A DNA stretch of 64,000 nucleotides, from NCBI GenBank assembly GCA_004431415.1, contig QPMI01000115.1, forward strand, positions 1 to 64,000, written 5' to 3'. Below, piece after piece: positions 8,101-55,451 of this stretch. Source of the DNA: Cyanophora paradoxa CCMP329. Its lineage: Eukaryota; Plantae; Glaucophyta. Position numbers and translations under genes: made by a program. Position 1 is the first letter of the stretch, and each line of letters begins with the position of its first letter. Below the pieces are notes generated by a model. That model saw only the letters and a list, made by a program, of their open reading frames with translations, had not been told where the DNA came from and did not search any database.

Positions 8101-9202
8101 AGCCGGCTGCGCGGCCGGACGGCTCTCGCGTCGATCTCTGAGATATTCACCCGCAGATGCCCTCCGTAGCGCGCGCCTGCAGCCCGCGGGGCGCCCAAGC
8201 GCATCGAGAGCTCGGGGCTCGTCCGGCGGGCCTCGCTCTTTGGGCCAGGTGAGCCGGCGGCGCGGCCGGGCGGCTCTCGCAACGGTCTCTGAGATGTCCA
8301 CACGCAGATGCCCTCCGTAGCGCGCGCCTGCAGCCCGCGGGGCGCCCAAGCGCATCGAGAGCTCGGGGCTCGTCCGGCGGACCTCGCTCTTTGGGCCGGT
8401 TGAGCCGGCGGCGCGGCCGGACGGCTCTCGCAACTATCTCTGAGATGTCCGCCCGCAGATGTCCGCGGGGCGCAGTCCGCGAGAGCTCGGGGCTTGTGCT
8501 CTCCAGGACTCAGGGACTTAGTGCAGGATCATCGGATCTGATCCCATTCCCCACCTTCTTCCCCGTGAAATTGGATTTCTTCCCATTCGTAATTTCTTGC
8601 TCATCGATTCGAAATGATACTCATGCTTTTTTTTCCATCAACTTGTTCCTGATGCCACATCCCCCCGGGTCCACACCCACCCCTCACGAGCCCCACCCCC
8701 TACGCCTCGGGAAAATCTGTGTCGAAGGCCCCACATGCTATGACAGGGCGTAGGGACTTCGAGAACCTGGATGTAATATGTTAGACCCGTCTAACATAGT
8801 ATATTGACAGTATATAGTCTTTTGCTTAGATTTGCTAGCAGTCTTGTAGGCATGGGCCGTACCCCAATTTGATCAAAACGCGCTAATTCGGTACCGCGCT
8901 AAAGCGCCTATAGCTACCGGCGCAAAACTTTTAGAACGCGGTAATATACCGTGGTATATGTGGCGCGGTATTTTTTTTTATGTGGCGCGGTAGGGGTCCG
9001 GCCCGGCCGTCACGGTCATATGTGGCGCGGTAGGGGTACGTATCATAGTATACTAGTAGTATACCACGGTAGCCTCGCCGAGTCGCCGAGTCGGTAGGCC
9101 ATGCATACGGGATGATACGGCCCGTGAATCGGCCGTGATTAGGGGTGGGCGTAGTGGCGGTCGGACCCCACTGAGTCGGTGGCCCCCCCCCACTGGCACC
9201 CC
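1993..9202. repeat. 3.6-kb tandem duplication (1993-5581 and 5604-9202) with a 22-nt junction filler
   Basis: Near-identical copies (ORF track repeats with offset 3611-3612); differences are mostly homopolymer-length indels; filler TATCCTTCCGCGCGCTTTGCAG at 5582-5603. Confidence 0.9.
4455..4842. repeat. ~151-bp GC-rich tandem repeat, about 2.5 units (second array at about 8073-8462)
   Basis: Units starting CGGCGG(A/G)C(C/G)TCGCTCTTTGGGCC at 4455, 4606 and 4756. Confidence 0.85.
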
Positions 9203-10116
9203 ACTCAGTGGCCGCCAGTGGCGGGGGGGTACGTCGTGTTTCACGCAAAAAACGGTCCAAACCCTATCTAAATCTCGCCGAGCTCAAGGCGCTACGCGCC
9301 TAAAGTAATTATGAGAGCTTTTCGACGGTCTAATGGTATGAGTACGCCCAGTTGTGTATTGGGACTGAGCACGGGATGTAATCGGCGTGCTCGCCGGTCG
9401 CGCCAGGCGTGATCGGCTGTATCACTGGATCCGGAGCGCTAGCGCCCTCCTCACCCTCGCTCGCGCTCATCGCAGGGCGCGGGGGTCGGGGTGCGCGTAC
9501 GCGTGCTTCTCAGTGCTGCGGCGCAGCTGCGCGCGCCTGCTTCCGTGCACGGCGTGCAGCCGGCGCCCAGCTAGCGCTAGCGCCGATCGCGATCACAGAA
9601 TCTTGGCGCAGATCCGATAAGATCTGCTAAGATCCGCATCAATAGGCCGGCAGATCCTGGGTCGATCGAGTCCCTGCGCACCGCTCCCCCCCCCCTAATA
9701 CGCTAATTTGTATGCCACTTAGGGTTGCCGCTTCGCACGAAGTTTCGCACAGGCCCCCCGAAAGCGAAACTGACGCGAAGTTTCGCATGTTTCGCACGAA
9801 GTTTCGCATGTCCTAGAGAACCCGAAGAGAATGACAGAAAGGAGGCGCCAACCTGCACGTAGTAGGGCTCCGAAGGGCTCAGCTACGTCCTAATCATCCT
9901 CCTCCTCGTCATTCCCATCATTCTCCTCCTCCTTCTTCTCCTCCGGATCCTCCAAGTACGCGTACCCCCCCACCCAGCCCCTTCCAAGGCCACGCCCGCG
10001 GCCACCTGTCCGTGCCGCCAGCCTTGCCGCAGTGCCTCCTCTTCAGTTGCAAGCTCCTCGGCTGCGAAGCCTTTGAAGAGCCTTCTGCGCGACTGGCGCT
10101 GCAGGGCTCGAACCGA

Positions 10117-10469
10117 AGCTCAGCTTGGCGCGGTGTCTCCAACAATTAAATCCGCGGATCCTTACGATTCACCGTAACAGCATCGAATCTAATCGAAAAT
10201 CACCGTAAGGCTCAGTGTCACGATCGATAATTTCGGTTTCACAATCGATATAATACAACTTCATCGATTAACTCGACCCAATTCATCTTTTTATGCGCGG
10301 TGACTTCGTTAAGTCGGCAGAATGCCTCTTCTCCCACGATTCCGCACGATTCCGCTCGATACACAGTAAGAATTCGTCTTTTTTCGCGCGGTGTCTCCCA
10401 CGATTCACAGTAACTTTTAACCAAAAGTTTAATAAAAATAAATCATGCACGACTTCTTAGATTATACTT
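10117..10469 (+). repeat. PLV-1 left TIR (353 bp)
   Basis: Reverse complement of 53227-53579; starts AGCTCAGCTTGGCGCGGTGTCTCC, ends ATTATACTT and includes the last codons of the integrase. Confidence 0.95.
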
Positions 10470-11495
10470 TCTTCTCACAACATTGCTACGGTTTGGTTTG
10501 ATTCCTTCTTTCTTCAACCTTTGATTAACTGTATTCGTTTTCTTTACTCTTGTTATTCGTTTTTGCGATGGAATCTTAATGACTTCATTAACTTTCACTT
10601 TCTGTAATTCTTGCTTCTTGAAGCGTCGCTTAACTTCCTTCTCGTCCCCATCCATATCTTCCAACACTTTGAATCTATTCCCATCAGACCTTCCAACTTT
10701 ATAAACCTTTTGACTAAACCTTGCACCTTCCTTTTCAAATGCACTCTTCTTACCTTCTAACACTCGAACAGTATCACCTGGTTTAACATCGACTCTCTCA
10801 TTTCCCTTCACGTTATTATTGTGAACAGTATCCCGAAGGTAAATATATAGTTGTTTATCTTCGTTAGAATACACTGTATTTGGTGAATCATTCTTCAAGG
10901 CACTATGGGGTGAATTGTTATAAATGGCGAGAACTTCGGTCACTAAATCAATCCACTTACTTGTCCCATTCGATGTCATTGCCTTCCGTAAATACTGCTT
11001 GAAAGTCCTGGTGAATCGATCGATAATTCCGAGTTTATCACCAACTGTAATGTGTTCATCCTTAGCGACATCGGTATACAATCGCACCCCATGTTCTCCA
11101 CACCAATTGCGATACATTGCGCTGGAAAACTCATTATCTCCCGATAGAGCAGCAACTTTACCTGCATCCTGTTTGAATCGATTTAGAATACTTGGGATGT
11201 TTTCGTTCGTTTTGAAAGGATACACGAATGCCTTTCTGCTCAGAATATCAACAAAACTAATCATCTTAAAAATACCATTGTTTGCAGTTTGAAATCCTTT
11301 GAAATACATAATATCTACTTGGAATGAACGTGGTTTCGCAACAATCCTTAGGAATGATTTAGGCTTTTTCGGTTTCTTGAATATCTGATGCACTTCTGAG
11401 TTTAAAAAGCGTTTTTTCAATTCTTCCTCATCAAAGTTTACTTTATCATTAATCAATTTCTGGCGATACTTCTTGTAAGATAACACATTATCCAT
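10443..11495 (-). CDS. rve-family (retroviral-like/Polinton-type) integrase of PLV-1
   Basis: FQVDIMYF, VDILSRKAFVYP, LSGDNEF, IIDRFTRTFKQYL, WIDLV...YNNSPHSALK..SP motifs followed by an SH3-like GDTVRV region. Confidence 0.9.
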   Translation of the reverse strand: MDNVLSYKKYRQKLINDKVNFDEEELKKRFLNSEVHQIFKKPKKPKSFLRIVAKPRSFQVDIMYFKGFQTANNGIFKMISFVDILSRKAFVYPFKTNENIPSILNRFKQDAGKVAALSGDNEFSSAMYRNWCGEHGVRLYTDVAKDEHITVGDKLGIIDRFTRTFKQYLRKAMTSNGTSKWIDLVTEVLAIYNNSPHSALKNDSPNTVYSNEDKQLYIYLRDTVHNNNVKGNERVDVKPGDTVRVLEGKKSAFEKEGARFSQKVYKVGRSDGNRFKVLEDMDGDEKEVKRRFKKQELQKVKVNEVIKIPSQKRITRVKKTNTVNQRLKKEGIKPNRSNVVRRKYNLRSRA

Positions 11496-14483
11496 TATTG
11501 AGCAGCGCAGTTACACCTAATATGTGACAGGAAACAATTTTTGGTAGTATGGGGCAACGCATTATTGATTCGATCAATAGAAATTACGTTCAGATCGAAG
11601 TCCATACCACCATAACAACGAAGACAGTGACCATATTGCTTGCCGTAGCGTTTCTTGCACCAATCCCAATTGACATACTCCTTCTCGTCATACGGTCTGT
11701 TTGCCTTCTTGTCTTGCTCCTTGTACTGCTCAATTCTCTCGCTGAACTTCTTCATGTTCACAACGTGTTCTGCCCACTCATACCCATCATGGTAAATCTT
11801 CACACGACTTAGCTCGGTAGTTCGGGTGATTGCTGTGTAGAACCATTCCGCAGAAACGAAGGGCGCACCCGCTTCATAGATCACCACATTACCGCTCTTG
11901 CAATCTATTGTATCACCCTGAATCACGTGACAGGTATAAGCGTAAGGAAGTGAGAAATATCTCATTGCAGGTGGGTCTAATGTGATCACTTCCTTTGTAG
12001 CGATATCTTCGATGACGAACTCTTTGTCGTCATATGCCTTGATGGTGTACGTAAATCCATTGTGAATAGTCACACCATTTTTCACGATCCTTTGCTTTGC
12101 GACAATCTCCACACCTTTCGCAAAAATTGGGACATCTTCCCCGTAGTTCAATTTATGCAATTGCAGGTTGACTTCCGCAGCCTTGCGATTGGTGTAAACG
12201 ATCGCCCTGTCATCTTTCTCCAAAGTATCGACCGTTTCAAACCTGTACTTTTTAATGACATCGGGAACACTCAAACGATTTTCGAAGAGATCCTTTTTGA
12301 TTTCCTCGACAGTGTCGCGGTCTTCTTGGGTCTTGTGACGCTTATTAACCTTCAATACTAACTCGTTCTTGAACAGGAGACGCAGAATGTATGAGTAGTA
12401 TTCTTTTTGGTCAACCGTCATATCCTGGATGGGCGGATTTTGGTGTGGGTCACCTGTAGCGATGTAGACCTTATCCGGGAACAGCACTTCCATAATGTAT
12501 GCAAGCGCCGCCAATTCTGGAACTGTGAATTGACAGATTTCATCGATTACGATGCAATCGTACTCAACCAATCCGGAAGCATTACCACCCACGATCTCGT
12601 CCATGTTCGAATCGTCCACTTTCAGATGCAGAGCATCGTAGATGGTCTTAACATTTGCAAGACCATGTTGTAGCTTCATGTCGCGAATCCTCTTATTTGT
12701 CGGAACAATGAACAGGGGATTTTGGAAACGCTTACCAAACTGAACACCAATGTAGGTCTTTCCCACTCCTGGAACGACACCCAATATAATCCATCGCTTC
12801 TGAGCAGCAAGAGTTTCGCAAATTGCCGTGGTGTTATACTCATCAACTACCGAGTAAATAATGTGATTCGACTTCTCTAATTTCACGAAGTTCTCCTCGC
12901 GCTCCAATTTCCCGTAGTGAATGCGCTTGAAATTGAACTCCTTATTGTTCCCGATATACTTCTTTGTGAAATTGGGGCAATGCTTGACGCTGAATTCACC
13001 AATGTTGTCGTATCTGTGACGGTCGAAACTCACAAGAGGGATCGGATCACAAGAGGTCGTGTAGACACAATCAGTATTAACAGAGACTGGATTAAGTCCT
13101 TTCTTACTGAGTTCGATGCACTTCTCGTATAGATTCATTCTCATAAGAGAATACATGAGATTGTGAAACGGTAGGAACCCATCAGTAAGATACTTTTCTG
13201 CTACTTGATTCACATAGTAGATGCACGGTTCTGTGATTTCTTCCTCTGCGATGACGTAACAGGTTGGGTCATACGATGCTGGATCTTTACCAAACACGTA
13301 TGGTTTTACCTCTCCGCCATATTGCTTTTGGAATTCAATCGCATCGTCGCGCTTGTTAAAGATCGTGGTCTTTACTTTGTGGTTCTTCTGTTTTCCTATT
13401 TGCCCAATATTAGCAACAAGCATCTGCTTCTTGTCTGTTGGGTCAAGGTCACTTTCCATGATTTGCTTAATCACGTCGCCTGCATAGTTTGGAACCAATT
13501 TATATGGTCGAAGAACCCCCTTAATGGTTATGTCTTCTTTCAGATCCTCGTAGTATTTTTTGAGAACCATGCCTGGGATGACATTGTACCGTGAATCGAT
13601 AAGCATGCGCTTATAACGGTCGTAGATGTTCAGTTCGTATTTCGTTCCATCCGCATTTTTCATCGATTTGAAATACTTGGATTTCAACTGAACATAGTAG
13701 AAGTTGTAGTTTTCGATTTCCTCAGCAGAAGTGATCGCGGTCTTCTGGAAATTGTCGAATTTACTAATGACTGGGACGAATTCAATCTGTTTTGCGATAA
13801 TTGCAGGATAGGCTTTGCACATGTCGTGTTCGTAGATATTCTCGCTCCACCCAATCTCATCAATGGTCTCCTTCTCCAAATCAAAGAACCCACGAAGGGC
13901 AGTCTGTGAACCAATGCGGAACGCTGTTGAAGTTTGGTCATTGTACGTACTCTTGTTAGCATTGTTAACAAGACTCAGATACATTTTCAGATTGAGCCGC
14001 TCGAATTTCTCACGATATTCAGCGTCCTTGAATTTCACCGCATAAGCAGTCTCCACATCCGTATCTGAACCGGGTGGGGTAACCGTGATGCTCTTCTCAC
14101 CGTATGTGAAATGAATGTGTGTGATCTTCCGCATCGGGGAGAATCCCGCGTGAACCTGGTAGTTAACATCAACAATGAACTCTTTCAGAAGATCGTCCAA
14201 GAACCCACTGTAACAGATTGAAATTTTACTCTGAATCTTCATCTCCTCCGAATTGATAATCTTCACGATATCCTCAGGAGTTGCCGCAAACTCACGATGT
14301 TTTCTTTGCTTGATAATCTTGAATCGCGACCCCACCGTAAGATTCGTGTCAGAGTTTGACTTGGATCCATTGAAAGAGTGAGTGAGAGATTTGAGATTCT
14401 CGTTCAGAAGGTATAAGTGACCATTTTCGATCTTCACATAGGCAACCGATGGCGTGAGGTGGGTATTCCTCGTTTTCGGTTTG
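11495..14483 (-). CDS. C-terminal part of the PLV-1 replicase: degenerate PolB-like domain + SF1 (RecD/Pif1-like) helicase + Cys/His nuclease-like tail; interrupted by PLV-2
   Basis: PolB-like motifs HDMCKAYP, KQMLVANIGQIG, VNTDC; SF1 motifs GVVPGVGKT, IVIDEICQ, GDPHQNPP, YTCHVIQGDT, FYTAITR; C-terminal CLRC...SIDRINNALPH...NC...CN. The frame continues to the PLV-2 TSD. Confidence 0.88.
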
Positions 14484-14489
14484 AAAGTG

Positions 14490-15043
14490 ACACATAAATA
14501 AAAACAAATTTAAATCCCTCGCTCTATCGCTCAATTCGCGCTTCGCGCTCATTTCGCTCTGTCGCTCAGGATTTAAATTTGTTTTTATTTATGTGTAAAT
14601 TAATCGAAAATATTTAAAAAATAAATCAAAATTTTTAATAAAATCAATTAAATTTAAATAAATTCGATTAAATTAATTGGTATAATATCAATTAAATTAT
14701 GATTTTATGAAATTTATATAAATTTTTGATTATGATTTTATGAAATTTATATAAATTTTTATATAAATCCCAACGTGTAACAGGTGAATCCCAAGGTGTA
14801 ACGGGTGTAACAGGTAAATCCCAAAGTTTTGGATTTTTCACCTCCTAGGAGCGAAGTTTGGGATTTACCTGTTACACCTGTTACACATGACGATATTCAA
14901 TAATACATGTTATATTTCTTCAAAATCTCAGTGTGATTAACTCGGAAATCGCGCTGCTATCTGCTTCTCCGCTTTCTCCAACCCTGAAAAGATCTCTGTT
15001 ATTCTCTCATCTATCAATTTAGATATTACGGAGGTCTTACTTT
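14490..15043 (+). repeat. PLV-2 left TIR (internally shortened relative to the right TIR)
   Basis: 14490-14730 is the reverse complement of 46828-47068; about 14766-15043 is the reverse complement of 45702-45979. Confidence 0.9.
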
Positions 15044-15335
15044 GCGCTTCTGTTCCGCAAGTGAATACATCAATCGCTAACATTCCTTGATCCGAATAAC
15101 AATGAGCGGTTAAATGGCTCTCATCAAGAAGTAATACCATAGCAAAACCGGGTGGCGAAACACCACCATCGAAAATCTCGCAATGCTTGTGAACTACTCG
15201 GATACCTTGCTCTTGAATAATAGATTGAAAAAATTGCATTAACCACTTCGTTGTGGTGTCTATGTTGTCCAATCCCACCATCAATGGATGATTGAACTTG
15301 TAATCTAACATAACATGGAAACCGCGATGATTCAT
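14937..15335 (-). CDS. speD: S-adenosylmethionine decarboxylase family proenzyme (prokaryotic SpeD/SpeH type)
   Basis: GFHVMLD, PPGFAMVLLLDESHLTAHCY (ES autocleavage site), AIDVFTCG; 132 aa, typical of short prokaryotic-type AdoMetDC. Confidence 0.85.
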   Translation of the reverse strand: MNHRGFHVMLDYKFNHPLMVGLDNIDTTTKWLMQFFQSIIQEQGIRVVHKHCEIFDGGVSPPGFAMVLLLDESHLTAHCYSDQGMLAIDVFTCGTEAQSKTSVISKLIDERITEIFSGLEKAEKQIAARFPS

Positions 15336-15555
15336 TTATGAATTATATAGAAAAATTAAAAACGAAATTGGTAGGATGCGAACGATCTTAGCGAAAGTAT
15401 TTCCGTATGAGTTGGTCGATATCATAATGCTCCATTATCATAAGACATGTCCGAATTGCTTTGATACTTGCATTATTACAAGAAACAAGACTGGTAAAGT
15501 CTTAATTTCTTTATCCCGTCTCCATATGTAATTTGTTTTTCTTTATCTATGGTAA

Positions 15556-16369
15556 ATGAAGACTCACTTTTACCATAAGTATGTCGGTAATAAATACAAT
15601 GAAATGGATACAATCAATCCTTTTATCGATTTAGAAGGCATAAATAAAATAATAGAACCATTTTGTGGTTCAGGTGCATTTAGTTTCTATCTTTGGGAAA
15701 AGCATAAAGAACGTTTTGATTACTTTATGAATGATAACGACGAAACACATATACTTTTTTGAATACAATGAAAGACCCTAACAGTAAAGTAAAACTTTTA
15801 GATAGTCTTCAACAGTTCGAAGCAGTAAGCAATATAGAAGAGCATAAAGAAGTTTATAAGAGTTTTCTACAACATGATCGTAAAGATGTAATGGATTACT
15901 TAGCCCATCATTTCTATCTTCTTAAAAACAGCGTTTTAAATGTTAAAACCCTCCGTGATTTCAAAAAACGGAACGTGAAGTTGAGTGCATATACAACTCT
16001 TAAAAAGAAGATACCTTACGATGATTTCCTACAAGATGTTAACTTATCTCTTGGGATTATCTGGATATTGTGTTGAAATACAAAGATGATGAGGATGCAT
16101 TCATATTTCTTGATCCTCCATACGTTAATAGCAATAATGACTTTTACGAAAATGTAGAATCCGATTTGGAAAAATTCTTTTTGGATTTAGAAGATCTATT
16201 GAAGACCGCGAAATGCAAAGTTATGATGGTTGTTAATGATGCTTTATTAATGAAATTGCTATTTAAACCCTTTATTCGACATACATATGGTAAAGTGTAT
16301 GGTATATCAAAAAAGAAAAGGAAACATCTCATTATGACTAACTACGAAATCAATCAAAATACAACATAA
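15556..16369 (+). CDS. D12-class (Dam-like) N6-adenine DNA methyltransferase, ~271 aa, split by two single-base frameshifts
   Basis: YVGNK, IEPFCGSGA, MND and FIFLDPPY motifs over three ORFs; adding one T near 15760 and one G near 16055 restores one frame. Confidence 0.85.
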
Positions 16370-16622
16370 TCGGTTTCTCTTCTATAACGATTCCCCATGT
16401 AGTCTTTTTTCTGTATGCATGTGAGTGTTTCTTGGAACACTGTCGGCAACCCGATCCCTTAATGTGATTAAATCCGTAGGTTTGGAACGTCTTATTACAT
16501 TGTAAACATCTAACGGATATCTTCTCTTGTGCTTTCTTATAGACAGTCTCACTGTAATCGAATTTAGCATCACCATGAATCATAATCGCAGATTCAATAA
16601 ATCTTTTAGTTTTTTCATCCAT
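16350..16622 (-). CDS. Small Zn-ribbon protein resembling the repeat unit of viral homing/restriction-endonuclease-associated domains
   Basis: FIESA..IHG..FDYSETVY...KISVRCLQC..F....NHIKGSGCRQC; no nuclease domain visible. Confidence 0.6.
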   Translation of the reverse strand: MDEKTKRFIESAIMIHGDAKFDYSETVYKKAQEKISVRCLQCNKTFQTYGFNHIKGSGCRQCSKKHSHAYRKKTTWGIVIEEKPIMLYFD

Positions 16623-16645
16623 TCCTCTATATATACCTTAGAAAT

Positions 16646-17474
16646 CTATGGTGCAGTATCTGACCCAAAAATGGGGAAGTAGCGATTTGTGCCGTAATAT
16701 TCTGCATATGTATTCTGTTTTGCAATAGCATCGGTTCTCTCAGCATAGAGAATGCATTTGTAGATACCAAACCTGGTGGCTCTCACCAAGAACTGGTAAT
16801 CTTCAAGACCGAAATTCACTCCATGATAAGCAATTCCGAAATTGTCATATGGCGTGATCACAACTGCAATATTTGGGGTTCCACCCTCTACTTGACAGAC
16901 AGCATAAACATCTGGTGGGATATCGACAACCACCTTGTAGTGGTCACCAATCTCAACAAGAGAATCAACTACTGATGTCTGCTCATTCACAACAATTGGG
17001 AAGATCTTGATAATATATGGTGCATTCATACTGGGACATAGGTGCGAATTCTGGTGTTGGGATCAATGGGATTGGGTTGATCATTTACGAAAAGAGGCGC
17101 ACCAACAGCTCCACCAATCCGAAGACCATCACCAATATATGCTCCCCCGTTTTGCAGTTAATAGCTCCCGACCGAGATTCAAAAGAATAAGTAGAAAGAG
17201 GATCACCATAACTGTCTGGGTCTCCATAGTGGGCAGAAAAGTTTGCATTTGTGACAAGGAGTTTCGTTGTCTTAACTATACCATTATTTTTATCACACCT
17301 GAGTTCTTGCAATCTCAGTTTGTGGGTGGAACCAAATGTATTCATTGTGGGTTGCACTTCTGTGGATTGGAGACCTTCTACATCATCAAAGGTAGCATGC
17401 TGCAAAACGTGATTCGCAGGTGCTGCTAATGAGAGTTGGGGTGTAATAATTCGTTCTGGTATTGGGGCAGCCAT
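16646..17474 (-). CDS. Hypothetical (probably virion) protein, ~276 aa, paralog of the adjacent 17498-18352 gene; two homopolymer frameshifts
   Basis: ELRCDKNNGIVKTTKLLVTNANF vs ELRADKNSGVVKTTRLLVTNANF; +1 G near 17146 and +1 C near 17034 join ORFs 17085-17474 and 16646-17029 through GAYIGDG...RIRTYVP, colinear with the paralog. Confidence 0.7.
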
Positions 17475-17497
17475 TTTACATTAAAGTGATATATAAT

Positions 17498-18352
17498 TTA
17501 TGGGGTTGGGTCATCGATTATATCTGGTTCCGAATAAAACCCTGTTGTGAAGATATCTGCAACGTTTACCCCTCGAAGTGCCGAAACAGCTGCTATATCT
17601 GTCCTCAGTCCCATAATCATAGTATTGTAAACTCCAACCTCAGTTACAAACAAATCATAGGTAAATGTCAAATTGTTATAAACACAATATCCTCGACCGA
17701 AATGGTTTGATGCTTGAACAAAGAATAGGTAATTATGACCTGTTTGATTGTTGTTTGCTCTGCACATAGATAGCATTGCTGTGGGAAGCGGAATATTTCT
17801 TCTTACTCGATCAGTTCCTGTTATAATAACCAATTCCGAATTTTCAAGAGTGACAGAGGAAGCAACATAGAAATGTAGAAAAGGTTGCTGTGCAACTGGT
17901 GTATAGAAACGTATTCGTTGGGGGTCTTCAACATTCTGTTCAAGAGTATCTGGGACATCATTATACGAAATCGATGAAGAAAGTTGACCGGATACACGAC
18001 AACCACCGCCAATAAACGCTCCACCTGAACGAATTGTAGCAGCGGCAGAATTCTTATCGAAATCGAGGGCTTTTAAATCCACACTGTATGCATCAGGACC
18101 TCCATTTGTCGGTTGAAAGAAGTTTGCATTTGTTACAAGTAGTCGTGTGGTTTTAACTACACCCGAATTCTTATCGGCTCGGAGTTCTTTTACACGAATC
18201 ATCGAATTTTTATCGAAAGAGTTACCATTAGAATTGGGTCTCTCTGTGGATTCTAAACCGCGGACTTCATCATTAACTTCATGTTGTCGAAAGTGCATAG
18301 CTGGCGATCCAAGCGAATAAATGGGCAGTTGAACTCGATTGTATTCACCCAT
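17498..18352 (-). CDS. Hypothetical (probably virion) protein, ~284 aa
   Basis: Long ORF directly after the fibre gene; likely start MGEYNRV at 18352; paralogous to 16646-17474. Confidence 0.7.
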   Translation of the reverse strand: MGEYNRVQLPIYSLGSPAMHFRQHEVNDEVRGLESTERPNSNGNSFDKNSMIRVKELRADKNSGVVKTTRLLVTNANFFQPTNGGPDAYSVDLKALDFDKNSAAATIRSGGAFIGGGCRVSGQLSSSISYNDVPDTLEQNVEDPQRIRFYTPVAQQPFLHFYVASSVTLENSELVIITGTDRVRRNIPLPTAMLSMCRANNNQTGHNYLFFVQASNHFGRGYCVYNNLTFTYDLFVTEVGVYNTMIMGLRTDIAAVSALRGVNVADIFTTGFYSEPDIIDDPTP

Positions 18353-45000: not shown

Positions 45001-45601
45001 CTATTGGGATATATGGTTTGAAGATATCAGCGACAACACCATTCTGATCCTCTGTATACCATCTGTTGTTTTCGCGAACCCAACGAGCGCCATTTTGTTT
45101 AAGGTATTTACGTAGAGTCGCTCGGTTCACAATCTTCCATCCATGCTCTTCAAACTTAGCATGATAAGCACGAAGATCTCTTGGAATGTGGAAATAGTAA
45201 CGTTCACGATGTTCTTCTTGTCCATAGCATATCCCAATTGCATTAATTACGTCATCGTGAGTCTTTGTAGTGTTGAAAAGAAGATCATGAAAATTAACAA
45301 CAACGATGAAATCAAGTTCAGCATTACGCACTTCATTAAGATGGCTAAACTTACCATGATCATTATAATTCACATGATTATAGAAGAACCGATCATCGCG
45401 AGTTCTCGCACAAATCCGATCCGAATTTCTCCGAAAATAACCAAAACAAACCATTTGATCCATTCCAGGATAAGAGTATGTTCCAATCTTTCGATGCAAA
45501 ACCTCAATAGTTTCAGCAAGATCAAGAATATCCTTCACACCAAATCGCATTTCAGCAATCGGAACCGAGAAGATCGGCTCACCTTCGAAGAGATACGCCA
45601 T
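44984..45601 (-). CDS. Hypothetical protein, 205 aa
   Basis: ATG-started ORF preceded by the shared upstream motif at 45691. Confidence 0.65.
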   Translation of the reverse strand: MAYLFEGEPIFSVPIAEMRFGVKDILDLAETIEVLHRKIGTYSYPGMDQMVCFGYFRRNSDRICARTRDDRFFYNHVNYNDHGKFSHLNEVRNAELDFIVVVNFHDLLFNTTKTHDDVINAIGICYGQEEHRERYYFHIPRDLRAYHAKFEEHGWKIVNRATLRKYLKQNGARWVRENNRWYTEDQNGVVADIFKPYIPIANRFQ

Positions 45602-45701
45602 GACACTGAATTACGTCTGAGAAAATGTTTTACCCGGTTTACTCTATACTGTCGCTTCTTCCTTAAATCATTTTGGGTTGCCCACGAGCATCATTTTTTT
45701 G

Positions 45702-47068
45702 AAAGTAAGACCTCCGTAATATCTAAATTGATAGATGAGAGAATAACAGAGATCTTTTCAGGGTTGGAGAAAGCGGAGAAGCAGATAGCAGCGCGATTTC
45801 CGAGTTAATCACACTGAGATTTTGAAGAAATATAACATGTATTATTGAATATCGTCATGTGTAACAGGTGTAACAGGTAAATCCCAAACTTCGCTCCTAG
45901 GAGGTGAAAAATCCAAAACTTTGGGATTTACCTGTTACACCCGTTACACCTTGGGATTCACCTGTTACACGTTGGGATTCATCCGTTACACCTTGGGATT
46001 CACCTGTTACACCTTGGGATTCATCCGTTACACCTTGGGATTCATCCGTTACACCTTGGGATTCACCCGTTACACGTTGGGATTCATCCGTTACACCTTG
46101 GGATTCACCTGTTACACATTGATTATCGATTGATTAATTGGACGTGTTACACTTGAAACACAATTTTGATACAGTAAAAAACAGAATCCAATCTCATCGA
46201 TTGTTTAATTGGACATAATGCAACTCTGGGGTCATTTTTGATACAGTAAAAATCGAACCGCAATCTCATCGATTGTTTAATTGGACGTAATGCAACTATG
46301 GGGTCATTTTTGATACAGTAAAAATCGAACCGCAATCTCATCGATTGTTTAATTGGACATAATGCAGTAACCATCCCTTCCAACAAAATACGCCGCAATC
46401 TCATCGATTGTTTAATTGGACATAATGCAGTAACGAGTGAATTATTTTCATCCGATATTTCATCGATTGTTTAATTGGACATAATGCAGTAACGAGTGAA
46501 TTATTTTCATCCGATATTTCATCGATTGTTTAATTGGACATAATGCAGTAACCATCCCTTCCAACAAAATACGCCGCAATCTCAACGATTGTTTAATTGG
46601 ACGTAATGCAACTCTGTGTGAATTTTTGCGTTTTACGATAGAATGGGCGGTGGACTACTTCAATCGTGATTATATCACAAAAATTATGTTCCTTTAATCG
46701 AGATTATATCGATTTTGCATAAAATACAAATTAATCGCGTTTATATCAATCGCAAAATACGTATTTTTCATTTAAATACAAATTAATCGCGTTTGTATCA
46801 TTAAATCAATCGAGAAATACGTAATTTATCAAAAATTTATATAAATTTCATAAAATCATAATTTAATTGATATTATACCAATTAATTTAATCGAATTTAT
46901 TTAAATTTAATTGATTTTATTAAAAATTTTGATTTATTTTTTAAATATTTTCGATTAATTTACACATAAATAAAAACAAATTTAAATCCTGAGCGACAGA
47001 GCGAAATGAGCGCGAAGCGCGAATTGAGCGATAGAGCGAGGGATTTAAATTTGTTTTTATTTATGTGT
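45702..47068 (-). repeat. PLV-2 right TIR (1367 bp) with a 21-bp tandem array (about 45921-46118) and a repeat-spacer array (about 46190-46612)
   Basis: TTGGGATTCA(T/C)C(C/T)GTTACAC(C/G) about nine times; core CGATTGTTTAATTGGAC(A/G)TAATGCA seven times; both ends match the left TIR. Confidence 0.9.
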
Positions 47069-48165
47069 AAAGTGAGTTCAGGTATCTCAGTCTTGTCGTC
47101 TTTGTCAATAGTAACCATCCCAATGCGGTAAGGTGACAGAACCTTTTCCACAATTTCCTCAAATGTAAAGCCCCAATCATCACCTTCTACTGGGTCACGT
47201 CCACGAATCATTTTGAATATACCGTTGTGGCTCCAATCAACCGATTTATACTTGCCTTTGGAATTGGCTTTCTGGAACGCTTGGGCGAAGTGCATAACAA
47301 GAACATCAGGAACGCAGCGACCCACTTTGAAGTTGTCACCGCGTACAAAGAGTTCCCCCAATGTCTTTGCTTGTGGGTTGGTCTCAGTTCGCAGATACTT
47401 GGAGATGATCATTGGGGCATGTTGCGAATCCCGTAGTGCTTGCTGTTGTCTCGGTACATACGCTTGATTGTCTGTGGTAATGATTCGCTCGAATGTGACA
47501 ATATCCCCGTAAATATCATTTTGAACTTTAACGAAGAATCGGAAATCACGATTGCCCACATTCGCTTGTGCGATCGCTAACATGAACTCTTGGATATTCT
47601 CAACACCCATCAGAGCTGGGAAGGTATTGAACGTGTTTTTGATTTTGTCAAGTGACTTCAACAGATCCTCTTTCGAACACTGAATTGCGAGAGGTTGGTT
47701 AGTGCTTGTCTTCTTCATCTCGAAGTAGAACATACCGCCATCCTCGACCACATTGGAATTAGCGGGCAGGTTTGGGATCTTATCAGGTGTGATGTCCTTG
47801 TAGACTCGGACATGCAGAACTACCATATTTCCGGGTGAGTTCTGGATGTACTCGCGAAGGTTATCCATCATTTCTTGGAAGGGATCCCGACGCTTGCGCT
47901 TCTCACGCTTCTCAATGTTCTTAGCCGTCCTCTCCGCCTTTGCCTCCTTCTTCTGTTGCTTACGCTCAAACCGCTGGTAGAGCGAACGATTGATTTGTCT
48001 AATGATATCATCCAACTTATCCTCTCGTGGTCGCTGGTAAGTTACCACATCGAGAAACTCTTCGAACTTCTCACGGTTTATCTTGTCGTCTACGAACGCT
48101 TGCATAGACTTCGCCACAATCTCTTGCTTCTTCTTTCTCAGCCTCAAATTCGACGCTCGCGGCAT
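47069..48165 (-). CDS. N-terminal part of the PLV-1 replicase gene (interrupted by PLV-2)
   Basis: Reads MPRASNLRLR...KTEIPELT and, after removing 14490-47068 plus one TSD copy, continues in frame as FKPKTRNTHLTPSVAYVKIENGHLY. Confidence 0.9.
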
Positions 48166-48402
48166 GTTGCTTCTTTCTTATTCTATACAAATAAATTATT
48201 TCTTTAAGTGATTTTCATAGCAAGACGTCATTTTTTGACCAATTGGGAATATCCACCGGTCAAGCAAATTATAAAAAGAAGGAAAGGGTTCGACCATCAT
48301 TCGATGGTTCTAAAAATAACTCGAATGGGGTTGTTTATCTTTTTGAAGCGCGTTTACCGCGATTTCGTCTTTCTCAGAGCAAGCGCGCCGAGAAAAACAA
48401 GA

Positions 48403-48657
48403 TTAGAAGTAAATGGATGGGCGCCCACGATTGGAATAGGGAACGCCATACAGATACTTGATGTAGCACACAGCGTTAGCGGTGTACTGGCGTTGTGAAC
48501 TCTCCATGATTTTCATTGCCCGGTAACATTCATCGGAATTGTAAATCTCAGTCATTTGTTTGGAGAGTTTTGTACTGTACTTCTTCAAATACTCCCGTCC
48601 TTTCTCTGTCTTGCGGTAGCGGTAAATGGCGCGTTTCTGGGCTTCGCTGATCGGCAT
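48403..48657 (-). CDS. Small basic protein of PLV-1 with RGRP motif
   Basis: MPISEAQKRAIYRYRKTEKGRE...NRGRPS; preceded by the shared upstream motif at 48741. Confidence 0.7.
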   Translation of the reverse strand: MPISEAQKRAIYRYRKTEKGREYLKKYSTKLSKQMTEIYNSDECYRAMKIMESSQRQYTANAVCYIKYLYGVPYSNRGRPSIYF

Positions 48658-48982
48658 TCTCTCCTTGTTCCTCTTCTGATATATAGCAAGAAATCTTTAA
48701 ATCCTTTTTGTTATTGGTATATACCCTTTTAGGAACATCGTCATTTTTTGCGCATCGTTACTGAGAAGATGCCGGAAAAATAAGTCGAAGGTCACCCCTT
48801 CAAGTTTCTACGAATGAACCCCGCAGAACAGGTGATTTTAAAGCGTGATCATGGATATCACAACTTTTCTACAACGCCACTTATAAAAATAAGTAAACGT
48901 GAGCGCAAACTTTCGGAATGGATGTTTAGCGCTATTCTTTAAAGAGATTATTTTAGCGTGAGAATGATGCGTGAGCTGTCGC

Positions 48983-49759
48983 TTAACGACGGTAGCCTGG
49001 ACGAATGCCCAACTTAGCGAATCCTGAAACCATTGGCGCCGCATTGGGAATCGAGTTAAGCGGGTCGGATTGCGATGTAGCCACCCTCAAAATAGATTTA
49101 TTAAGCACCGGCAAATCGGTTTTGTTCGATTCTTGATAATCAATAGTCTTAGCGATTAATTCGGTTGGTGATTCCTTGACAACCTTAATGGGATCAGGTA
49201 GCACATCAAAAGTAACTTCGGGTTTCTTCTCTACCTTCTCTTTGGTTATAGGTTGCTCTTTGATCTTCTTCTCTTTTTGTGTCTCATCGGCGATTCCCTC
49301 AATGAGACTTTTAGCGTGTTGGTATGTGATCGTTTTTAGACCGCCTGTTACCGCTCTAATAAAGTAACGGTTGCGGTGGTCTTTCTCAGAATAGGTTGAG
49401 TATAGACGTTCACCGCCATCAAGGAGTTTAAGAAGGGTCGACGATGTTGCTACCTTCTCAGTGGTCGATGATTTGAACTGACCCTTTTTAATTCCGCGCT
49501 TTGCACCGGGCATACGGTTTAGCGGGACTTGATTAACAAGGGCGTTATCATCATGCACATCTTTTGTTGATGCTTGTGTATATTGGTTTCTGTCTTTGTG
49601 AACGTCACGATCAATGTCACCATTACCATACGCTGCAACACCCTTGGATTTCTTGTACCAATTCCTTCCTTTCATTTCACCATCGCCAACGTCCGCTTCC
49701 ACCGCTGGTTTGGCTAAGAAATTCTTAGGTTGAGTCTTGCGAGGCATTTGAAATAACAC
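48983..49759 (-). CDS. Hypothetical Lys-rich protein of PLV-1 (possible core protein; likely start MPRKTQ)
   Basis: ORF directly downstream of the penton gene. Confidence 0.65.
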   Translation of the reverse strand: MLFQMPRKTQPKNFLAKPAVEADVGDGEMKGRNWYKKSKGVAAYGNGDIDRDVHKDRNQYTQASTKDVHDDNALVNQVPLNRMPGAKRGIKKGQFKSSTTEKVATSSTLLKLLDGGERLYSTYSEKDHRNRYFIRAVTGGLKTITYQHAKSLIEGIADETQKEKKIKEQPITKEKVEKKPEVTFDVLPDPIKVVKESPTELIAKTIDYQESNKTDLPVLNKSILRVATSQSDPLNSIPNAAPMVSGFAKLGIRPGYRR

Positions 49760-49779
49760 AACAAAAATAATTTACAAAA

Positions 49780-50682
49780 TTACATATTACGGGAGAACGG
49801 CAAGTAAACGCCTTCTAACTCTTTTATGACGTTTTTCAATGCCTTCTTTGTCAGATCCTTGTCATCTTGTGTTATCAGTTCAAGAGTCATCGACCAATCA
49901 GTGGTAATATCGGTTTCTACACCATTCCAATACGTGAGACGCACTTTCAGTGTTTCAACTTCTACTTCCCCATTCTGCTCATGCAAGATCATAGAGTTAT
50001 TTGCTGAATCATATTTCAGAAGACTACCTACCGTTTGGTCGATCTCAATTTTAGCAAGCGCTTTATCGTCACTGGTGTTCTTGCTTACGTAATTGCCTTT
50101 GAAGGGGTCAACATGTAGAAGGATGTAAGAATTGAACAGAAGATCAAGTGGTATTACGCTATCGACGTAATGGTTGTAAGTGATTGAACCAATCTCAACT
50201 GGCGCATCAAGTGGAGCGGAAGCGTAACCATTTTCCGAACTTGCAGGTGTAAGATCAGGGAAACCAAGGAAGTTCGCTAAGATCCTACTACCAAATCGTA
50301 GGTTAAATACTGCATCCGACATGAACCTTAGAGATATGGTAACAGGATCGTATGTCACATGGAAATGGCGAGTGTAGGTAGTTCCAACTGCACCATATGA
50401 CTGTGAGGCGAGTTTTGCATTTAGTAGATTCACCAAACTATCTGTTGTGTATGTACCTTTCGTAATAATATTACTTCTGGTCTTAATCACATTTGCAGCA
50501 TCGTAAGTAGATGTAATGAGCGTTCCATTTTCGCTGAGATTGTAGATGTTGTTGAACATTTCGAAATTGGTAACGCGACACGCTTTAACCTTCTGGATTG
50601 CATGGGGAAGTTTGTAAGTAAAGTTTGTTGGGGTTCCATCATCTCGGTCTCTGGAATCAATATTAAGATAATGACGCGTCAT
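49780..50682 (-). CDS. Minor capsid (penton) protein of PLV-1
   Basis: LNIDSRDR...NFTYKLPHAIQKV; ETLKVRLTYWNG...DWSMTLEL. Confidence 0.85.
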   Translation of the reverse strand: MTRHYLNIDSRDRDDGTPTNFTYKLPHAIQKVKACRVTNFEMFNNIYNLSENGTLITSTYDAANVIKTRSNIITKGTYTTDSLVNLLNAKLASQSYGAVGTTYTRHFHVTYDPVTISLRFMSDAVFNLRFGSRILANFLGFPDLTPASSENGYASAPLDAPVEIGSITYNHYVDSVIPLDLLFNSYILLHVDPFKGNYVSKNTSDDKALAKIEIDQTVGSLLKYDSANNSMILHEQNGEVEVETLKVRLTYWNGVETDITTDWSMTLELITQDDKDLTKKALKNVIKELEGVYLPFSRNM

Positions 50683-50734
50683 TCTGTTTAATAATGTAAA
50701 TTAAAAATTTCTTTTCGTATTTTAAACATAAGAC

Positions 50735-51961
50735 ATGGCTCTTACTGGAACGACCCTTAAAGAACTCCTTGTAACTCCCGGATCGGATCAAATTTACCTA
50801 TCACCCGGTCTCCAAATCGGAACCAACCCCAAATACAAACCATTCCTCGAACAAGTCCGTCCACGCGGTAATACCTTTGGGTTTAAGACGACCGCTTACT
50901 TCGATCTCCCACGCAAGCAACTCCTCAGTGGCGTTTCGCTTTATTTCAAAGTGACCACTGGTGGTGGTGTTGCTTGCACTCTTCCCAATGGCGGCGCTTC
51001 ATTCATCAATGAGATCCGCTTCGTACATGGTGGGTTTAAGTACATCATCCCCGGTGATTGGATTACTGTTAATGCCCTGGTTGATACTGATCATTCTACC
51101 ATGGGTAGTCTGCATGCTTCTCTCGGTTTCTTCAAGGAAATTGAACGTGACAGCACCAATGAATCGATGGAGTACATTGTAAGAATTCCCGCGCAATTCT
51201 GGGATGATGCGTATTTCCCTCTTTGCGTTCTGGCGGATATGCCCACGATTGAGGTTGATTTCCGCGATGTTGGAATAGTTGAAGTCCCTGCTGGTGGATC
51301 GGTAAGCATTGCGGACTGTTCACTCATCTGTCAATTTGTTAATATTGCTTCTGCGGAGGCTGAGACTCTGTTAAAGACGGCGAATGAGCAAGGCGGTATT
51401 CGCATCCCTATTACTGAGGTGATCCACAAGAAGACTCGTGCGCTGAAAACTGCCGATGCTGGGGAAACCGTCGAGGTGACGCTTGCTAATGTTTCTGGTC
51501 TGGTTCACAGTATTCTGATGACGGTACGTGAGGTAAATAAACTCAATACTTACACTCACTCTGACTTCTGCGGTCACGTTTCGGATGTTAAAATTGATCA
51601 GTTCCAAATCTTCCACAACAACCGTTCGCTCGATATTTCCAACAAACCAATTAGCGGTTTCCTCTCCGCTATTAATCACATTCCTACTCATTATAAGGGT
51701 GTTACAGTTGGTAATGTCTCTTATGGATTTGAGGCTGGTAATGTTTACGGAATTGTTCTCAGCAAGAGCGGCAAGGATTCCCTACACAACTCCGTCATGG
51801 GATACCAAGATTTCTTCAACTCTTCGAGTTCGTACATGGATCTGACCGTTTCTGGTTGCACTGATGCGGCGCCGGTTCAGGTGGATATTTACGCGCTCCG
51901 TCACAATGTCATGGTTCTCAACGGCTATAACATTTCCACACTGAAAGTTTCCAACTTCTAA
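50735..51961 (+). CDS. Major capsid protein (double jelly-roll) of PLV-1
   Basis: 408 aa; FDLPR..LLSGVSLYF, FINEIRF..GG, VRIPAQFW...FPLCVL...IEVDFR; colinear blocks shared with the PLV-2 MCP (LANVSGLVHSILMTVR vs LSQISGLVYALLVSVR). Confidence 0.85.
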   Translation: MALTGTTLKELLVTPGSDQIYLSPGLQIGTNPKYKPFLEQVRPRGNTFGFKTTAYFDLPRKQLLSGVSLYFKVTTGGGVACTLPNGGASFINEIRFVHGGFKYIIPGDWITVNALVDTDHSTMGSLHASLGFFKEIERDSTNESMEYIVRIPAQFWDDAYFPLCVLADMPTIEVDFRDVGIVEVPAGGSVSIADCSLICQFVNIASAEAETLLKTANEQGGIRIPITEVIHKKTRALKTADAGETVEVTLANVSGLVHSILMTVREVNKLNTYTHSDFCGHVSDVKIDQFQIFHNNRSLDISNKPISGFLSAINHIPTHYKGVTVGNVSYGFEAGNVYGIVLSKSGKDSLHNSVMGYQDFFNSSSSYMDLTVSGCTDAAPVQVDIYALRHNVMVLNGYNISTLKVSNF

Positions 51962-52096
51962 GCGCGGTTTCGCCCGCGCGCAACGACCGAAGGAATTAAA
52001 GTTCTTTTCTTTCTTTAAAGTAGGAAGCCTGCGAATTGCGTATAGGTTAGCGCATGATTTTGTTTTTTATCTTATTACTGTAACGGACACACAGTA

Positions 52097-52848
52097 ATGG
52101 ATGTAGATTTAAATGATATTCCGGAATTCGACCCGGTAAAAACAGCTAAACTCCTTCGCGTTTTCTCCTTGCCGGACGCAGCAATTCTGGTAAGACAACG
52201 TATTGTAAATATCTACTTTATGAACTGCGGGATAAGATTGATCAGATTGTAGTGTTTAGTTCCACTGCGTTTACCGGTCAGTTCAGAGATATAACGCATC
52301 CTGATAATATATATGAGGAATGGGACGATAATGTAGTAGTGAAACTCATTAGTATGCAAAAGAAACGAATTGAGAACAATGAGAAGCGCAATAGTTTAGT
52401 TATAATACTTGATGATATGATAGGTTCCTCTTTGGATATGCATAATTCCGCTGTGTTATCTAAATTAATAACAACGGCAAGACATTATTCGATTACAGTA
52501 ATAATTAATACTCAACGTTTATGCTCTATTTCTACTACCATTCGTCGTAATGTGGAATTCATTGTATTTTTCAATATTCTTGGGAACGAGAAAGAGTTTA
52601 ACTGCGCTTACGATGAGTATAACGGAGGAATGGATAAGAAGACTTACAAGGAACTACATAGACTTTGGGGTTACAATTACCAAACAGTCATAACTGGACT
52701 GCAAGGGTATGATATAAAGACCTATACCGACCGAGCGATTTTAACAGATGATGATATGAAGGCTTTTCGCAAGTTTGTGAAGCGACGAGCGATAAAAAAG
52801 AGAGTTTCGATACGAATTAGTAACGAGCCAACAACGATAACAGTGTAG
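52097..52848 (+). CDS. A32/FtsK-like packaging ATPase of PLV-1, ~250 aa, one frameshift near 52154
   Basis: ATG 52097; FLLAGRSNSGKT Walker A upstream of the tracked ORF, IILDDM Walker B, ARHYSITVIINTQ, IRRN. Confidence 0.88.
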
Positions 52849-53108
52849 TTGGAAAGCGCTTTTTACGAGCATTCCGGCGCTTGTTTCAGATTTGAATGGC
52901 GATGATCTGGTGAAGAGTTACGATTATTTCCGTACTTCGGTTGTTCGTGTGTGTATGCTCGTATATATATACTTTTCCCGGAATTCAAAATCATCAAATT
53001 CGACGTCATCGCGTTACCACTGAGCCAACAGTATGATGTCATTGCGTTACATCATCGCATAAACTTTTTTTGAAAGTTTTCATCAGACATCATGTCATTA
53101 CATCATTG

Positions 53109-53149
53109 AGTTACAGGAGTTTATCGCGAACCGATAAACTCCTGTAACT
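53109..53149. terminator. Perfect 18-bp-stem hairpin downstream of the PLV-1 ATPase gene
   Basis: AGTTACAGGAGTTTATCG-CGAAC-CGATAAACTCCTGTAACT; function inferred. Confidence 0.5.
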
Positions 53150-53226
53150 TTTCACCAACTGCTCCGTTTTCAATTCTGAAAACAGATTCGGAATCGTCGC
53201 GACTCGCGACGCCCTCTATACTGTTC

Positions 53227-53579
53227 AAGTATAATCTAAGAAGTCGTGCATGATTTATTTTTATTAAACTTTTGGTTAAAAGTTACTGTGAATCGTGGGA
53301 GACACCGCGCGAAAAAAGACGAATTCTTACTGTGTATCGAGCGGAATCGTGCGGAATCGTGGGAGAAGAGGCATTCTGCCGACTTAACGAAGTCACCGCG
53401 CATAAAAAGATGAATTGGGTCGAGTTAATCGATGAAGTTGTATTATATCGATTGTGAAACCGAAATTATCGATCGTGACACTGAGCCTTACGGTGATTTT
53501 CGATTAGATTCGATGCTGTTACGGTGAATCGTAAGGATCCGCGGATTTAATTGTTGGAGACACCGCGCCAAGCTGAGCT
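53227..53579 (-). repeat. PLV-1 right TIR (353 bp)
   Basis: Reverse complement of 10117-10469. Confidence 0.95.
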
Positions 53580-55451
53580 ACCGAAGGTTTTGTATGGGAG
53601 CCTCCCGCTTCGCACGAAGTTTCGCTCCCCCACCCGAAACAGAAACCGAAACTTTGCACTTCGCACGAAGTTTCTCTGACCCGAAACTTCGGGCCGGCAA
53701 CCCTAATGCCACTGGCATGTTGATGTACTGGCGAAAAGTGCCACTGAGTGAGTCCAGTCGCGGGGTCCCACTGGCCACTGGCGCCACTGTGCCCAGCCCT
53801 AGCCGTGATACGGGGAGCTCTCGAGTGTGCCACGGTGCTGCCACGGTGCCACCGTACGTGCTGGCCGGCCGCAGCCTGGCCCGCAGGCGGCCGGCCGTCA
53901 TGCTTTGGCTTGGAGCCTTGGACCCTCATCCGATCATGGGCCTCATGATCATGCCATAAATTGGCCCATAATTATAATGCCGACTCAGGTTTTGGCAGGG
54001 CTTGACATGCTGGCCACCGCGGCCGGCGCCGGCTCTAGATCTGGGGCTCGAGCGCAAATCGGCGGCTCGAGCCGGGCTCGAGCCGGCACCCCTCGAGCCA
54101 CGGCCCACGGGCCGGGCGGCCCGGGGGGCCGGGCCGGCTCGAGCCGGCCCGAGTCCTTACAATATAATATATTCGATATATATAAACAAAACTACATAAA
54201 ATAGCAAGCCGGCTCGCCGGCTCGCGCTGGCTCGCCCGTAGCAAAACCCGAGCTGGCTCGAGCCAGCCGCGATGTGCCTCTAGAGCCGGCTTGATCCACC
54301 CGGCCCGCGTGGTCAGAGGGCCGGCTCGAGCCGTCCGGCCCCTCGGCTCGGCCCGGACCGGCCCGGCTCGGGGCCCAGCCGCGGGGCCGGCAGCACATGC
54401 ATCTGCATATATGCATGGATCTTCTGAAAAGCTCCCGCTCAGTGATCGATCCCGAAGGCTTCGCGATCGAATGCATATGAAATCTCTCCGCGCATCCAAT
54501 CCGGGATAACAGGTGGAGACGTCGACGAAAAATCGTCGAGAATCTCGAGTCGTCGACGAGAAATCTTTGAGAATCTCCGAGAGTCAATTAAGAATTGATA
54601 TCTTGGGGCCCGCCGCCCGGGGAATCCCGAACTAGGAATCTCTGCGCCACCTGTTGAGGTGTGCGGAGACATTTCTCCCCCCCTTAACCTAGAAAAACAC
54701 ACGTGACCTTGAGAAACGATATGGGTACAAAGAACTGTGTGGGAGCAGTCGAAGAGAAGACTCAATTGCCGCAGTGCCGTCATGCATGATGTGTTCATGA
54801 GGTAGCACTAGCAGCACAGCGCGGCCTACATGTACAGTACATGCAGCGCTGCACTGGCGCGCGCGCAGCCAATTTTGCGAAATGTTCTTCCGCCGGATTT
54901 CCGCCAGGTCGGGTCGACCGGTAAAAACAATTAGCTGTGGAGATCCGAATTTTGCGATATCGATAACGATCGAAATAACGGCGGTAATTCGGGGGGGTAT
55001 AGTATATGGAAAGACTCGGAGAGAATTACCGCGGTCCGCGGTACCAAATTACCGCGGTCCGCGGTACCAAATTACCGCGTGTTAACCGCCCTATATACTA
55101 TGATACAAGCCTCAAGTTTTTATCATACACGCTTTCCGATGCATGCCTTCCGTGTTCGAATCGCCCTGCGATGAGAATCACGCCTTCAAATCCCGCCCGT
55201 TCCACATAATTCCGATCGATCATGCCCCACCTTGCCTGTACACGCCCCCACAGTGCTGGAGTAGACTAGAGGCTGTGGCCGGTAATTCACCAAAAAAAAA
55301 AAAAGTTTTTAAAACGCGGTAATTTCAAGTTTGGTCCCGCGGTATTTTGGCCACCCTCGGGCCGGAGTTTCTAATTATAACGCGGTAGTTTATGCCGCGG
55401 TAACTTAGTGCCACACGGTAGCGCTCCGCCGCCCCTCTCTTCGCACAGCCC

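Follow-up and report, generated by a model that had tools for sequence, protein, structure and literature searches.

The stretch of DNA analysed here (64,000 nt of contig QPMI01000115.1 from Cyanophora paradoxa CCMP329, hereafter the window) contains four mobile elements inserted one into another: an outer hAT-type element (A) contains a second hAT-type element (B), which contains a Polinton-like virus (PLV-1), which in turn contains another Polinton-like virus (PLV-2). Containment in the sequence A > B > PLV-1 > PLV-2 was confirmed at every boundary. A is bracketed by the 8-bp target-site duplication GCCGTGAT (9132..9139 and 53802..53809), B by the 8-bp duplication ATGCCACT (9712..9719 and 53706..53713), which occurs in exactly two copies in the window, PLV-1 by the 5-bp ACCGA (10112..10116 and 53580..53584), and PLV-2 by the 6-bp AAAGTG (14484..14489 and 47069..47074). 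When the coordinates were rechecked, the duplication and the inverted ends of each of the four elements lay where a preliminary description of this DNA had placed them. With their inserts, A measures 44,662 bp (9140-53801) and B 43,986 bp (9720-53705), both with their ends kept, and removal of the inner elements in silico yields 668 bp for A and 518 bp for B, as that description had it, and 10,878 bp for PLV-1.

Three pairs of an 11-nt inverted end (with at most one mismatch) adjoining an 8-bp duplication were found in the non-viral DNA, while Markov-resampled controls gave a mean of 0.02 such pairs and a maximum of 1 (any pair in 2 of 100 controls); the third pair, overlooked in the preliminary description, involves a duplicated left end of A at 5510-5581. 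The innermost step is fixed independently of the duplications, because PLV-2 splits a PLV-1 gene in frame: the upstream piece (47075..48165, minus strand, 363 codons without a stop) and the downstream piece (11495..14483, minus strand, open over 995 codons; superfamily-1, Dda-like helicase) are both open and, joined through a single copy of the duplication, form one continuous frame (1091 + 6 + 2989 = 4086 nt). Both viruses have a GC content of 41-43%, against ~60% in A, B and the flanks. The left A/B junction, including the left duplication of B, is spanned by contigs of two public sequencing runs (X6 and X17) with zero differences, and the right duplication of A by one contig from each of these runs. 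The duplications prove the nesting; strictly, they establish neither in which order the elements reached the locus nor where each event took place. Thus, of the complete insertion order proposed earlier, the containment holds and the strict arrival order does not follow. A search for a fifth enclosing element gave 37 weak candidates, each an inverted pair flanked by repeats of 2-4 bp, and none was convincing. Scans of the window for tRNA genes and Rfam families returned zero matches.

The arms of A lie at 9140..9711 and 53714..53801 and those of B at 9720..10111 and 53585..53705, all on the plus strand. The 11-bp inverted ends, which begin with TAGGG as in Ac/Ds, match at 10 of 11 positions in A and at 11 of 11 in B, and each element exhibits four subterminal motifs in its left arm and three in its right arm (CCACTGR-type in A, CGAAACT-type in B, picked by eye). 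The 668-bp and 518-bp shells contain no transposase open reading frame (ORF). Judged from their sequences, A and B behave like non-autonomous hAT-type elements, and they would represent two different families because their ends and subterminal motifs differ. B retains a remnant minus-strand frame (9890-10110) with an acidic tail at its end, which may be the terminal part of a transposase; a Pfam scan of three reading-frame fragments from B returned nothing.

PLV-1 spans 10117-53579 in two parts (10117..14483 and 47075..53579) and is bounded by 353-nt inverted repeats (10117-10469 and 53227-53579) that are 100% complementary. It encodes a 350-aa rve-type integrase (10443..11495, minus strand; Pfam rve E-value 0.0017, below the cut-off), which is 24% identical (E-value 2e-17) to the 466-aa rve-type integrase of PLV-2 (26833..28233, minus strand; Pfam rve E-value 0.00038, likewise below the cut-off); Pfam found a chromodomain in neither. 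Polymerase motifs were sought in the PLV-1 helicase protein and this candidate was rejected, with no similarity to the PLV-2 polymerase. The major capsid protein (408 aa, 50735..51961, plus strand) is predicted to form a double jelly roll: the model folded on a 7-sequence alignment (predicted local distance difference test, pLDDT, 65.5) matches several double jelly-roll capsids, with that of PBCV-1 as its best Foldseek match (E-value 1.7e-19). The protein P0004 was excluded from this alignment as an unrelated repeat match, and the single-sequence fold was unusable (pLDDT 30). The relatives of this capsid protein reach just 23-30% identity, and a word-indexed protein search with it returned 0 matches. 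An A32-type packaging ATPase is encoded at 52150..52848 (plus strand; Pfam Pox_A32 E-value 8e-14), with frame breaks near its 5' end. Over 12485-13826 the present PLV-1 differs by ~1.6% from the majority of public contigs, and by 0.2-0.5% in most other pieces displayed. Exact scans of viral contigs and of metagenome contigs with the PLV-1 end gave 0 matches each.

PLV-2 (14490..47068) measures 32.6 kb, or 27.9 kb without an internal duplication, and exhibits inverted segments of 241 nt (100%) and 281 nt (99.6%). Its genes encode S-adenosylmethionine (AdoMet) decarboxylase, a patatin-discoidin protein, the rve integrase, a DNA polymerase, a primase-helicase, an A32 ATPase, capsid proteins, and a 1546-aa protein with two lectin-like domains. 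The major capsid protein (465 aa, 41613..43010, minus strand) is 23% identical to that of PLV-1 (E-value 7e-16) and 57% identical to its nearest named relative, the C. paradoxa protein P0001 (EukProt); blastn detected no DNA similarity between the two viruses. Among the proteins of the two viruses, two of 300 aa, alike at 21% (E-value 5e-10) and without a library match, are candidates for the minor capsid (penton) protein. The match of the DNA polymerase has an E-value of 1.4e-6, and the context suggests that the enzyme is of the protein-primed type B. Compared with a strict Polinton/Maverick, PLV-2 possesses the DNA polymerase and the rve integrase; no maturation cysteine protease was found among the 31 ORFs scanned with Pfam, which weak homologues might escape. 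Altogether, the double jelly-roll capsid (modelled for PLV-1, by homology for PLV-2), the A32 ATPase, the inverted repeats and the rve-type integrase identify both elements as Polinton-like viruses (PLVs).

Several further features of the viral DNA were observed. A 4.65-kb tandem duplication inside PLV-2 (33372..42679, comprising 33372-38026 and 38026-42679; 1 indel, 0 substitutions), genuine or an assembly error, leaves the element with one whole and one truncated capsid gene. The last 107 nt of the AdoMet decarboxylase gene (14937-15335, minus strand; Pfam E-value 1.3e-12) belong to the inverted repeat and recur at 45702-45808; a literature search for S-adenosylmethionine decarboxylase together with "polinton" returned 0 papers. 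The inverted repeats of PLV-2 are uneven, with ~845 nt of 21-, 59- and 72-nt arrays in the right one (45983-46827) and a 33-nt duplication in the left one (14731-14762). An internal copy (93.5%) of their hairpin motif lies between the polymerase and primase-helicase genes (31959-32051) and, together with a repeat array at 26413-26647, flanks the integrase-polymerase module; PLV-2, with two replicases, may itself be a composite. Frame breaks (30680-30733, 33018-33084, ~26099 and ~52150) affect the polymerase, the primase-helicase and probably the patatin of PLV-2 and the ATPase of PLV-1, and reflect either decay or sequencing error. A 55-nt motif, 73% alike, lies in the same sense directly downstream of the PLV-2 integrase (26755-26809, minus strand) and of the PLV-1 ATPase (52867-52921, plus strand), possibly as a shared terminator.

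To the left of the nest lies a 3.6-kb tandem duplication (1975..9202, plus strand, comprising 1975-5581 and 5586-9202), the copies of which are 99.2% identical (5 substitutions and 16 gap columns). The first copy ends 64 bp into A, which creates a second left end of A with GCCGTGAT at 5510-5581, and the contig across the junction of the left flank and A is 2.5-2.8 times deeper than the A interior; for these two reasons we place A at the locus before the duplication. The duplicated end also delimits a second unit of 48.3 kb (5510-53809), with matching ends and the same duplication, which keeps two of the four left subterminal motifs. The local repeat depth reaches up to ~80,000 at 5450-5801, and a ~150-bp repeat family of very high depth occupies 549-870, 1868-2333 and 5586-5944. 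TACCGCG-rich stretches flank the nest on both sides, an inverted-repeat element lies at ~54040-54390, and 57800-64000 contains a host gene that is rich in introns and has a repeat within it (59757-60499); one piece of the gene gave no match in a homologue search limited to longer proteins.

The flank of the nest, or part of it, is present in 20 of the 23 listed public runs, and contigs were compared for four runs on the left side (X1, X6, X8 and X17) and for two on the right side (X6 and X17). The depth of the A interior and the A/B junction is 123, 113, 106 and 29 in X1, X6, X8 and X17, respectively, in line with most other low-depth contigs of the same runs. PLV-1 contigs are 3.2-7.2 times deeper than the A interior and PLV-2 bins 12-58 times deeper, each in four of four runs. 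Empty forms of the outer elements were also found. Five contigs (two from X6, three from X17) represent B-free relatives of A, in which the right arm is followed by a single ATGCCACT and then by a sequence resembling the A left arm; they show 4-5 differences in 58 nt and ~4 times the A interior depth (terminal bin 1652 in X6), and the flank of one further A end is a different one. From the B right arm (0 substitutions, one 6-nt insertion), a contig of X6 runs through a single ACCGA and on into 175 letters other than the PLV-1 repeat, and is likely a PLV-free B. It may be a second copy or the present locus without the viruses; the double viral insertion may thus be of recent date and lacking in other cultures. 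A second, diverged copy of B has its own flank, and the depth suggests about two copies of B. Among the X6 and X17 contigs compared, none is seen to bridge the right PLV-1/B junction or covers 53706-53722, which is no evidence either way, since records are filtered and contigs drop rare variants; the depth at 53588-53608 is accounted for by two contigs, neither with the exact letters of the window, and the viruses may be absent from the locus in the X6 and X17 cultures.

A and B are therefore best described as low-copy elements. The preliminary description had called them miniature inverted-repeat transposable elements, a label that overstates the copy number, that of B most of all. It had also regarded a lack of full-length genomic copies of the empty forms as fatal to its account; this refutation did not occur, as empty relatives of A do exist, and full-length copies with 8-bp duplications of their own are not demonstrable from short contigs.

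PLV-1 ends with at least two other flanks were found, of which one matches the PLV-2 polymerase gene and the other matches nothing in the window, and hence lies in neither virus there. In X6, the outer end of a PLV-1-type repeat continues into a sequence that agrees at 28 of 30 bases with the PLV-2 polymerase gene (29549..29578, plus strand); in a shuffle control of the 20-nt flank pattern 0 of 100 matched. Because the outer end of the repeat abuts the gene, an insertion is a better reading of the junction than an exchange of repeats. A two-contig row from X17 at the same place agrees with the X6 flank at 16 of 28 positions, and at the other 12 it has the alphabetically earlier letter (compared by eye), as expected if X17 has the same junction and the row mixes this flank with the third one, ties being broken alphabetically. 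It is likely that a PLV-1-type element sits in a PLV-2-type element elsewhere, and that the two families insert into each other, though only one side of this junction is seen, and no duplication. The literature searched, which excludes most subscription papers, yielded no case of two PLV families nesting in each other, and neither virus duplication motif begins a word in the two text supplement files of PMC12220804.

We consider it probable that the nest arose by four independent insertions, each by the element's own enzyme, into DNA that tolerates insertions. A hAT-type transposase would have put A into a repeat-rich region, before the 3.6-kb duplication copied its left end, and a second hAT-type transposase, recognizing different ends and motifs, would have put B into A. 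The PLV-1 integrase would then have made the 5-bp duplication in B, and the PLV-2 integrase the 6-bp duplication in the PLV-1 helicase gene, likely disabling that copy. The duplication lengths of 8, 8, 5 and 6 bp fit two hAT-type and two rve-type enzymes (PMC3260210, PMC12220804). The viral insertions are recent, because the viral repeats show no substitution (below ~0.9% and 0.6% at 95%). The pile-up most likely reflects tolerance and a regional bias for repeat or viral DNA, and not recognition of A or B. Mavirus-like elements integrate without sequence specificity, with 18 of 29 sites near repeats (PMC8547959). A target preference of PLV-1 for A or B, as suggested in the preliminary description, is not supported, as its other observed flanks are neither; the looser bias fits the data.

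Several points weigh against this interpretation. Summed contig depth does not equal copy number and is a rough guide, here with no single-copy host calibration. In X6 the right A junction has a depth of 56.6, half of the 112.6 of the A interior, which could mean two composites; in X17, however, the corresponding ratio is 0.87, and ~84-125 is the depth of most other X6 contigs in the low class. The two other PLV-1 flanks are those among the ends listed, and more loose ends exist (10 right-side and 853 left-side rows). Finally, the joint chance of the reciprocal junction was estimated at 0.00003-0.005, which favours active homing; the estimate is rough, with guessed genome size and copy numbers, and leaves out the survival of harmless insertions and regional bias.

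Such homing, in which both PLV families actively seek PLV DNA (because of its low GC content, its chromatin, or co-replicating genomes) and thereby disable competitors, is the most serious alternative, although we regard it as rather unlikely. It would amount to insertional warfare, with integrases that home to PLV DNA and a replication gene knocked out in each direction, namely the PLV-1 helicase and the PLV-2-type polymerase, a scenario that we advance with the same reserve. It would explain PLV-2 in PLV-1 at this locus and the PLV-1-type end in PLV-2-type polymerase DNA in X6, with which the X17 row is consistent, and it has a parallel in Halocafeteria seosinensis, where 5 PLVs and 9 virophages lie within other viral elements (bioRxiv 10.64898/2026.07.28.741278). 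However, these are two events only, and the reciprocal junction is one-sided and without a duplication. Moreover, PLV-1 in the window took a site of 61% GC in B, not viral DNA, its third flank belongs to neither virus, the integrases lack a chromodomain detectable by Pfam, and a survival bias in favour of harmless sites would produce the same pattern.

The preliminary description had proposed that a hAT transposase acting in trans could move both proviruses as cargo. Movement of the whole 44-kb unit in this manner, similar to Teratorn, is physically possible: A and B both keep their ends and subterminal motifs, Tol2 delivers ~70 kb (PMC2768751), an Ac/Ds macrotransposon moved ~100 kb of nested retrotransposons (PMC3260210), and the twofold depth ratio in X6 could be read in the same sense. 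The pattern of copies is nevertheless the opposite of what cargo movement predicts, since the depth of the composite corresponds to about one copy, PLV-1 reaches 3-7 times that depth and occurs with other flanks, and B-free A and PLV-free B exist. In addition, the left flank and end of A were copied in place by tandem duplication, the frame fragments of B have no Pfam match, and both viruses own an integrase, unlike the herpesvirus of Teratorn (PMC6431247). The proposal thus finds no support in these data; it is likely that the unit has not moved as a whole, and we judge it very improbable that a transposase has moved or moves it.

We are just as reluctant to assume only three steps at the locus, in which PLV-2 would have entered PLV-1 elsewhere and PLV-1 carrying PLV-2 would then have integrated into B by trans-complementation from intact PLV-1 copies. 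The duplications, which do not record the place of events, the intact integrase frame and inverted repeats of PLV-1 and the existence of several PLV-1 copies are compatible with such a history. On the other hand, a 43.5-kb molecule, four times the 10.9 kb of PLV-1, would be unlikely to fit the PLV-1 capsid, and PLV-1 has its helicase gene split. A further PLV-1 copy carrying PLV-2 at that site was not seen among the contigs listed, which did not include that junction. Least credible of all is a misassembly of repeated viral DNA, since, although the near-perfect 4.65-kb duplication, homopolymer indels and several frameshifts resemble long-read or polishing errors (PMC10120064), a misjoin does not make exact duplications at all four levels or split a gene in frame, and the left A/B and right A junctions are each spanned by contigs of two runs.

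With four independent insertions as the preferred explanation, the locus is a base-resolved record of the pile-up of endogenous viruses in a protist genome, with empty forms that can be used as controls. If homing were true, PLV integrases would choose viral targets, competition between resident PLVs would become testable, and a route would be provided for the shuffling of replicases and capsids reported in PLVs. If cargo movement were true, the nest would be the hAT counterpart of Teratorn, though the evidence runs against it.

Among known systems, the glaucophyte PLVs are close to PLV-2, as indicated by the 57% identity of its capsid protein to P0001 and by the patatin-discoidin fusion reported for glaucophyte and rhizarian PLVs (PMC12220804), both pointing to a unicellular alga as the likely host, whereas PLV-1, at 10.9 kb and with its distant capsid relatives, is smaller than the usually quoted 14-40 kb. 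A contig of C. paradoxa with several elements, which may or may not be related to the present locus, appears in bioRxiv 10.64898/2026.10.13.758929. Retrotransposons within PLVs and virophages are described for cryptophytes and Cafeteria, and another preprint describes viruses integrated in tandem. The EMALE virophages of Cafeteria (PMC8547959) resemble the viruses of the window in their rve integrase, short duplications, absence of sequence specificity and frequent location near repeats. A documented element preference exists in the same system, where 91% of type 1 Ngaros lie in viral DNA (PMC8547959), but the virus-homing element there is a retrotransposon, while here it would be another virus.

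The shells resemble Ac/Ds of maize (PMC3260210), which has 11-bp ends starting with TAGGG, an 8-bp duplication and subterminal repeats, and for which nested Ds and short non-autonomous copies stretched by later insertions are reported. Here, in contrast, the inserted DNA is viral, and A and B are known from their sequences, with neither mobility nor an autonomous partner shown. Teratorn (PMC6431247) shares with the nest more than 40 kb of viral genome enclosed by the ends of a DNA transposon; it encodes, however, an active transposase used as the viral integration enzyme, whereas the present shells have no transposase ORF and both viruses bring an integrase of their own, so that the nest does not qualify as a Teratorn-like transposon-virus fusion. 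The depth suggests about one copy of the composite. The closest parallel is Halocafeteria, in which nested PLVs in viruses and in host transposons are already known, marked by inverted repeats and duplications and including one three-level case. The host elements there are Mutator-like elements and long interspersed nuclear elements, and reciprocal nesting is not stated in the excerpts of that preprint considered here, while in C. paradoxa two hAT-type shells are involved and one pair of families likely nests both ways. With four levels resolved to the base, the present locus is an unusually clean new example of such nesting.

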